DNA from: a virus
Lineage: Duplodnaviria > Heunggongvirae > Uroviricota > Caudoviricetes
Strand: one strand, 5' to 3'
IMG/VR virus record: IMGVR_UViG_2695420871_000002
Location: 1-7,936 of that record
Length of the DNA: 7,936 bases
Each line of letters opens with the position of its first letter. The first letter of the stretch is position 1. Made by a program: the position numbers and the translations under genes. The notes under the pieces were generated by a model, which was not told the DNA's origin, did not search any database, and worked only from the letters and a program-made list of their open reading frames with translations. Positions 4,989 to 5,788 of this stretch are shown one piece after another.

Positions 4989-5788
4989 TTACCCCCTGAA
5001 GCCTGGCGGGATCGCACTGTCCGGCAACGAGACGGTGTTAACCTGTCGGAGCAACGTCTCAGGCCGAACACCTTTCGGCGCGAACAGGCCCTGGTATTCA
5101 TTGGCGATGCTGTGTCGAATCACCTGCTCAGGTGTAAAACCCTGCTGACGGAATTTTTCCAGTTCCCGTATCGCCCCGTTAGCGCCCTGCTCCGTTCGAA
5201 TCGGTTTTCGCAATGCCTGTCTGAACCGGACCCACTCATGCCAGAGTGTTTCCGGCAACCAATCGGGCAGCTCAATAGCCTCCGGCTCGAATTTTTTAGA
5301 CGCTCGTTTTTGGCGAGGGGGAGATCAGTATTTAGATCTTCCTCTTCCTCTTCCTCTTCCTCTTCCTCTTCCTCTGGTAACGCTTTTTGATCCGTTTGTG
5401 TAACGCTGGCAGCGTTACCTTTTCGTTTCAGTTCGCGTATTTTTGTTACTCGCTCGTTTGTAACCGCCCGTTTTTTTTTAGAGCTTTTTCCGTTATGACG
5501 TTCAAAGTTAGGTAGAGAAAGCCCACCGTCATTTTCGACCAGCCATCCAACCTGAATTAACGCATCAGCAAAACCAGACATAAAAGTGATGCGATCTATT
5601 GCACTTTTTGTAACGCCGCGAGCGTTACAATCTGCATTACCGTCTATCATTTGTTGATCCGCCCATGCCCAGAAGCGAATAACCTTCCCTAATGCGGCAT
5701 CTGGATCAATATTCAGAATCTCAGCAAGCCTGAATATTTCCGGCTTATCCGGCGTAATAACCTCGAGCTTTATCCAGTTTGAAGCCAT
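4989..5788 (-). CDS. Phage replication initiator (O-like replisome-organizer N-domain plus DnaT/O-like C-domain), read in two frames
   Basis: N-terminal ORF 5120..5788 (MASNWIKLEVITPDKPEIFRLAEIL..., SD AGGTGA before ATG 5788) runs through a 12-Glu tract. The conserved-looking C-terminal domain (KKFEPEAIELPDWLPETLWHEWVRFRQ..., ORF 4989..5258, open to about 5324) is in the -1 frame and has no SD or ATG of its own. The frames overlap across 5258-5324 and include the heptamer A_AAA_AAT (complement of 5291-5297). Confidence 0.7.
5338..5373. repeat. Perfect hexanucleotide tandem repeat (CTTCCT)x6, encoding Glu12 on the minus strand
   Basis: Six exact CTTCCT units counted at 5338-5373, inside the initiator ORF linker. 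Confidence 0.95.
5400..5418. repeat. 19-bp perfect palindrome GTAACGCTG-G-CAGCGTTAC (copy 1 of 3)
   Basis: Read directly. Preceded by a GTAACGCT half-site at 5377-5384 and followed by a T-rich stretch including T9 at 5471-5479. Confidence 0.6.
5610..5628. repeat. 19-bp palindrome GTAACGC-CGCGA-GCGTTAC (copy 2 of 3)
   Basis: Read directly; lies inside the initiator N-domain coding region. Confidence 0.6.

Follow-up and report, generated by a model that had tools for sequence, protein, structure and literature searches.

A repeat-mediated 10-bp deletion, rather than recoding, very probably accounts for the split YdaU-family replication initiator gene of a Shigella sonnei prophage remnant

Pseudogenisation and genome reduction are well known from the IS-riddled cryptic prophages of Shigella. 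Rac and lambdoid-type prophages carry in their early region a replication initiator with a recognisable plan: an N-terminal domain, a variable linker that is rich in Lys and Arg and contains poly-Glu, and a C-terminal DnaT-like domain. The stretch of DNA analysed here (7,936 nt, hereafter the window) has on its minus strand a Rac/lambdoid-type early region made up of a cro-like gene, ydaT, the initiator gene (4989-5788) and ydaV, and the order cro-like, ydaT, ydaU, ydaV is common to the window and its Rac-type relatives. At the DNA level the window gene shares 92-97% identity with the ydaU genes of Rac and E. coli prophages. When 5,426 complete E. coli genomes were searched with the gene by megablast, 1,419 proved to have the region, the best matches being 97% identical; the three matches whose annotation was consulted each have the gene as a single ORF of 789-801 bp, and one annotated E. 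coli homologue is named 'phage replication initiator YdaU family protein'. A single 789-bp ORF is also present in the Rac genomic sequence MN652886 and in the complete genome of phage vB_EcoS-666R9, whose homologue is annotated 'DNA replication protein O'. The partner gene ydaV (4236..4982, minus strand) is intact and encodes a DnaC-like helicase loader of 248 aa (Pfam IstB_IS21, E = 1e-19; NCBIfam PRK12377, E = 8e-154).

Family assignment made use of an intact allele from S. dysenteriae, P0013 (261 aa), which has the window's extra Lys. P0013 matches phrog_2509 'replication initiation protein' with E = 8.6e-86, its residues 1-261 aligning to positions 1-277 of the 277-position profile, and N-terminal PHROG matches span its residues ~4-132. 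Through this intact-allele search, the window's protein, once repaired as described below, resembles YdaU of the Rac ydaU-ydaV pair in matching phrog_2509 from end to end. Residues 104-261 of P0013 also match phrog_6451 'primosomal protein' (E = 3.9e-39), and residues 169-261 of the intact protein match the DnaT C-domain (PDB 2RU8, E = 9.9e-5; 9ZBT, E = 2.9e-4). These profile matches identify the gene as a Rac/lambdoid-type prophage replication initiator of the YdaU family (PHROG 2509). Only the C-terminal domain is like DnaT (primosomal protein I): an NCBIfam scan gave a weak match to the DnaT tail alone, at 17 bits against an equivalog cut-off of 201 bits, and the N-terminal domain of the initiator is unrelated to DnaT, a resemblance of domains and not family membership. 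The lambda O family model is not matched either. A Pfam scan of both halves of the protein had no match at E ≤ 0.01, Phage_rep_O and DUF1376 included, and returned a sub-threshold, low-complexity match to TFIIA; the 'protein O' label in phage records denotes function only. The C-terminal domain, encoded in the window at 4989-5270 on the minus strand, resembles the C-domain of the host DnaT, which hints at a possible link between such initiators and helicase loading. If lambda O–P and DnaT are a guide, the DnaT-like domain would tie the origin complex to the helicase-loading machinery.

The ORF list and comparison with intact homologues place the initiator gene of the window in two frames of the minus strand. 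The N-frame ORF of this YdaU-type initiator (5120..5788, minus strand; 222 aa) starts with native residues encoded by 5788→5316, which comprise the N-terminal domain together with the K/R-rich and poly-Glu linker, and ends with an out-of-frame tail encoded by 5315→5120 (AKNERLKNSSRRLL…HLSR). The remnant of the C-terminal DnaT-like domain occupies the -1 frame at 4989..5324 on the minus strand. This C frame is open for 111 codons, from just past a TGA at 5327-5325 to the stop at 4989, and many stops close it upstream of that TGA; the ORF listed in it is 4989..5258(-). Its translation (…PPRQKRASKKFEPEAIELPDWLPETLWHEW…PPGFRG) is identical to the last ~105 residues of intact homologues, and the two-frame split is therefore not a product of chance. 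A preliminary description of the locus had reported overlapping N and C frames with the C frame at -1, as well as a C frame devoid of its own start codon and SD, and both observations stand: the sole start-like codon in the C frame is a TTG at 5258, which has no SD in range, the nearest GGAGG being ~23 nt upstream. An independent start for the C domain was rejected on these grounds. Homologues that encode the two domains as separate genes, an arrangement raised in the same description, did not come to light, the homologues examined all being single ORFs.

The break itself was located by DNA alignment. Intact homologues read GATC-TCCCCCTAAA-TCCCCCT-CGCC where the window reads GATC-TCCCCCT-CGCC (5322-5316). 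One 7-bp direct repeat and a 3-bp spacer are missing (TCCCCCT-AAA-TCCCCCT reduced to TCCCCCT), a loss of 10 bp that amounts to -1 in frame. Two repeat copies are kept in the intact loci L001-L004 and L013 and exactly one in the window. The single remaining TCCCCCT copy marks the deletion junction (5316..5322, minus strand), which was defined by the alignment, by pairwise differences from L004 and by a repair test; it lies 19 nt upstream of an A_AAA_AAT heptamer and within the interval 5258-5324 already singled out in the preliminary description. Within 5300-5340 the window allele reads GATCTCCCCCTCGCC, and the state with the 10 bases present reads TCCCCCTAAATCCCCCT. When the 10 nt were put back, the two frames became one ORF of 810 nt and 269 aa, and the repaired protein equals that of the closest relative plus one extra Lys and six extra Glu. 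In protein terms the deletion falls at linker residues ~155-158, between LPL and NPPRQ, which separate the K/R-rich/poly-Glu stretch from the DnaT-like domain.

Comparison with relatives isolates this lesion well. At the break, the 10 bp are the only difference between the window and four close homologues, each annotated as one 789-801 bp ORF. The closest relative, E. coli FDAARGOS_944 (L004), is 99.5% identical over window positions 89-7858, and the whole window differs from it by ~17 substitutions and four indels, namely the 10-bp gap, 18 additional nt in a GAAGAG array, 3 additional nt in an A run (A9 vs A6) and a 1-nt deletion in ydaT. Within the initiator gene the 10-bp gap is the sole out-of-frame indel, the +18 and +3 changes both being in frame. 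On the strength of these alignments, the 10-bp deletion between direct repeats is the true cause of the frame change. The preliminary description had entertained a deletion that inactivated the gene, which was right in kind, although its size (10 nt, not 1 nt) and its place (5316-5322, not 5292-5297) turned out otherwise. It had also set the split at the A_AAA_AAT heptamer and proposed to look for a missing base in the T6 run at 5292-5297. Neither proposal survives the alignment, in which the break is at 5316-5322 and the A6 run is identical in intact homologues; a base missing from the A6/T6 run was rejected accordingly.

The heptamer (5291..5297, minus strand; alignment and frame check) is incidental. 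In the window, CTA_AAA_AAT sets A_AAA_AAT at 5297-5291 in 0-frame phase, corresponding to the T6 run at 5292-5297 on the plus strand. Intact genes read these bases as TCT AAA AAA TTC (Ser-Lys-Lys-Phe), which is not the slippery phase, and the heptamer is thus in 0-frame phase because of the 10-bp deletion. This bears directly on programmed -1 ribosomal frameshifting at A_AAA_AAT, the proposal that slippage joins the N and C domains and that the gene yields two products in the manner of dnaX and IS3-family transposases. The proposal draws on a canonical X_XXY_YYZ heptamer that lies in 0-frame phase inside the overlap, where a -1 slip would give …LAKNERLKN-FEPEAIELPDWLPE… with the C-domain intact (predicted slip-junction peptide LKN/K-FEPEAIELPDWLPETLWHEWVR). 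It is nevertheless extremely unlikely. The phase exists only through the deletion, the run is not conserved, Rac having AAACAA (Lys-Gln) in its place, and the gene is one continuous ORF in all homologues examined. The preliminary description had seen no strong SD-like stimulator or downstream hairpin, and our analysis agrees: neither GGAGG nor AGGAG occurs within the 20 nt that precede the heptamer, the 98-nt segment beginning at the heptamer folds at -32.1 kcal/mol with z = -1.43 (16 of 200 shuffles were as stable), and the only sizeable downstream stem begins ~19 nt past the heptamer. Of the three hallmarks of a programmed -1 site that sequence can test, a stimulatory element and a conserved two-frame layout are thus absent, and a slippery heptamer in phase is present. 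In E. coli reporters, heptamers without a stimulator reach only 2-10 times the 0.055% background (PMC4066793). Relatives with the same deletion have in addition built up A8 and IS600 lesions, which are set out below. Programmed frameshifting was rejected on phase, conservation and the absent stimulator. Transcriptional slippage at the A9 run (5471-5479) as a means of rescue was rejected as well, since several C-frame stops, including the TGA at 5327-5325, precede the junction.

A further explanation, a homopolymer assembly error, had been listed in the preliminary description. Stated more broadly, the gene would be intact in the organism and the contig would contain a homopolymer or collapse error. 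The window is indeed a short draft contig (7,936 bp), and a second frameshift nearby in ydaT could suggest error-prone data. However, what was lost is 10 bp between direct repeats and not a homopolymer miscount, and the ydaT lesion is a lone A gone between T and G. The window is contig CXEH01000153.1 of GCA_001259515.1, one of seven NCBI assemblies with the junction, and the 222-aa ORF, the junction, the ydaT lesion and the A9 run are all repeated in the six others. Among the seven is a finished 4.98-Mb chromosome, CP026802.1, which is named S. sonnei ATCC 29930 (PMC9430107). An exact match to a 32-nt junction sequence was found in 11 IMG/VR contigs (L014-L024). That the junction is common to seven NCBI assemblies and 11 IMG/VR contigs indicates inheritance and not an assembly error, and an artefact of assembly or sequencing has next to no likelihood.

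The junction has a narrow distribution. None of the 549 complete E. coli genomes with coverage of an 81-nt junction probe has it; the maximum identity among them is 90%, a ceiling imposed by the 10-nt gap. No GTDB species-representative genome gave an exact match to the 32-nt junction, as would fit a lineage-restricted allele. The 222-aa protein had no exact counterpart in a protein cluster table. Taken together, these sequence comparisons argue that the lesion is real, inherited and restricted to a lineage, and is not a homopolymer miscount.

Decay is not confined to the initiator. Directly upstream, ydaT (CII-like/YdaT_toxin family; 5866..6287, minus strand) has a frameshift of its own: one nucleotide, an A, is missing between 6249 and 6250, from GTGTTGTT[A]GCCCTG at a non-homopolymer position; within 6240-6260 the window reads GTTGCCCTG. 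The 140-aa ydaT is thereby split into ORFs of 58 aa and 101 aa, and the lesion is present in all NCBI assemblies that carry the 10-bp deletion. Positions 7859-7936 of the window are the left end of IS600 (100% identity) and positions 1-88 an IS911-family end (92%), and homology to the E. coli relative ends exactly at these IS borders. IS genes likewise interrupt and border this remnant in ATCC 29930.

Sister genomes show further damage to the initiator. The A run is A8 in 8 of the 11 IMG/VR contigs with the 10-bp deletion, a second frameshift, although A8 calls in such contigs could in principle be homopolymer sequencing errors; in the two A8 contigs in which the whole gene is readable, the N frame stops at 113 aa. 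In about six of the IMG/VR junction contigs (L014, L016, L018, L019, L022 and L024) the initiator is interrupted at nt ~104. In L016 (7418-8681) the interruption is an IS600 insertion that duplicated a 3-bp target, GGT; L018 has an IS600 end at the same break, and in L014, L019, L022 and L024 homology only starts at nt ~104. Read across these contigs, lesions are accumulating on the deletion allele. From the lesions shared among sister genomes we infer an order of decay in which the 10-bp deletion came first and was followed by the A-run change and the IS600 insertion.

Several other rearrangements of the remnant were observed. The window is without ~175 nt beside the IS911-like end (88/89) that ATCC 29930 (L005) and FDAARGOS_944 have, and it keeps ~500 nt beside IS600 (7356-7856) that are gone from ATCC 29930. 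In contig CXCC01000231.1 of GCA_001261015.1 (L009), the sole contig returned by a look-up of the 58-aa ydaT fragment, the ydaT/ydaU pseudogene pair (1-1190) adjoins an immunity region that differs from the window's and contains HTH genes of 139 aa and 80 aa, like that of E. coli OkiPb01676; the changeover coincides exactly with the start of ydaT (window 6293). L009 may represent a genuine mosaic recombinant, another copy of the prophage or a chimera in the draft assembly. The other cargo of the remnant looks intact, all of it on the minus strand: a hokD-type Hok/Gef toxin ORF (2168-2380), a homologue of the epoxyqueuosine reductase QueH (2551-3237) and a Ren-like exclusion protein (3799-4221; PHROG 142/DUF977).

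Two repeat tracts within the gene vary in length among relatives. The hexanucleotide array (GAAGAG)n, which encodes the poly-Glu linker (5337..5375, minus strand; TRF and alignments), varies in frame from 2 to 7 units by one counting pattern, and the window has three units (18 nt) more than its closest relative. The A run (5471..5479, minus strand; alignments) is A9 in the window, encoding Lys-Lys-Lys, and A6 in E. coli relatives, and the codon count of the intact S. dysenteriae protein fits A9; among A6, A8 and A9, only A8 is out of frame. The gene and its upstream flank also contain three palindromes of 20-22 bp with the form TGTAACGC-N4-GCGTTACA, at 5399-5418, 5609-5630 and 5800-5821, spaced ~190-210 bp apart. 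One is just upstream of the initiator start codon and the other two are inside the gene, and GTTACA/GTAACA half-sites at 5443-5475 adjoin the A9 run. Their sequence and placement make the palindromes candidate initiator-binding (origin) or operator sites.

Taking the observations together, we consider the gene very probably a frameshift pseudogene, fixed and clonally inherited, within the IS-bounded remnant of a prophage in Shigella sonnei and its relatives. The features expected of such a pseudogene were all found: two repeats in intact genes vs one in the window, a full ORF restored by repair, and a lesion repeated in independent assemblies alongside other decay. One TCCCCCT copy and the AAA spacer were lost in the window's lineage, most likely through slipped-strand mispairing during replication, an origin supported by the two other slippage-type length changes in the gene, in the A run and the GAAGAG array. 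The 10-bp loss shifts the frame by -1 within the linker, and translation would then give a 222-aa product consisting of the native N-terminal part and a 65-residue nonsense tail, leaving the DnaT-like C-terminal domain untranslated. With the conserved C-terminal domain lost, initiator function has probably been lost too. The heptamer is an accidental result of the new phase and would allow at most a trace of unprogrammed frame restoration. Relaxed selection in an IS-cut remnant may be the reason for both the ydaT and the initiator lesions. Selection against in-situ replication or against YdaT toxicity is also a possible driver of these lesions. Elsewhere in the gene, the entire C frame included, the S. 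sonnei-type allele has no further lesions, which fits a recent event, and residual function is conceivable alongside.

Residual function could take two forms, and there is only a small chance that the allele is not fully dead by either route, be it A6 slippage or a 222-aa fragment with residual activity such as interference with Rac-type phages. The first would be a leaky pseudogene, in which unprogrammed slippage at A6 (ribosomal at -1, or transcriptional with one A added) produces a trace of functional initiator. The heptamer has the right phase for frame restoration, the slip site is found 19 nt past the junction in a linker whose length already varies among relatives, and the restored product would differ from wild type in ~10 linker residues only. 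Translational 'correction' of problem indels is also known, as a recoding review points out (PMC5009743). However, the rate expected without a stimulator is well below 1% (PMC4066793), an IS-cut remnant is unlikely to have a working lytic cycle, and the A8 and IS600 lesions removed even this chance in relatives. The chance that the pseudogene leaks in this way is very small; trace restoration is conceivable, and nothing suggests selection for it.

The second form would be a functional 222-aa N-terminal product, for example an origin- or operator-binding fragment that interferes with the replication of incoming Rac-type phages. Translation from the original start can still produce the native N-terminal part and the linker, and the three palindromes in and just upstream of the gene could be binding sites. 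Against this, the N frame is also broken in relatives with the same deletion, by the A8 stop at 113 aa and by IS600 at nt ~104, and these N-frame lesions argue against selection to keep the fragment; moreover, DNA binding by the N-terminal part and the use of the palindromes as sites are both matters that we infer. A function for the 222-aa product is highly improbable, and the plain pseudogene remains our reading of the locus.

A single pseudogene, the disrupted form of a YdaU-family initiator, should therefore be annotated at 4989-5788, and ydaT should be marked as another. The initiator family is already known, as is the kind of setting in which this disrupted member occurs, and no new biology follows. 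The value of the analysis is that of a correction: a slippery heptamer in a frame overlap had raised the possibility of recoding, the cause was a plain repeat-mediated deletion elsewhere in the overlap, and comparison with intact relatives removed the false lead. The case also shows the stepwise decay of a prophage replication module.

Set beside the described systems, the locus compares as follows. Like dnaX (A_AAA_AAG) and the IS3-family elements (A_AAA_AAG or A_AAA_AAC), the window has an A-rich X_XXY_YYZ heptamer in an overlap of the 0 and -1 frames. Unlike these programmed sites of E. coli, it has neither an upstream SD nor a well-placed downstream structure, its heptamer lacks conservation and falls outside the slippery phase in the functional gene, and homologues do not have the two-frame layout. 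It differs from intact YdaU in the 10-bp linker deletion and in a C-terminal domain that is not in frame. With the frameshift pseudogenes of Shigella cryptic prophages it shares a repeat-mediated deletion, a frameshifted neighbour gene, IS600/IS911 borders, further IS600 insertions in sister genomes and the presence of the allele in ATCC 29930. It departs from them in nothing notable and is a typical example of their kind.
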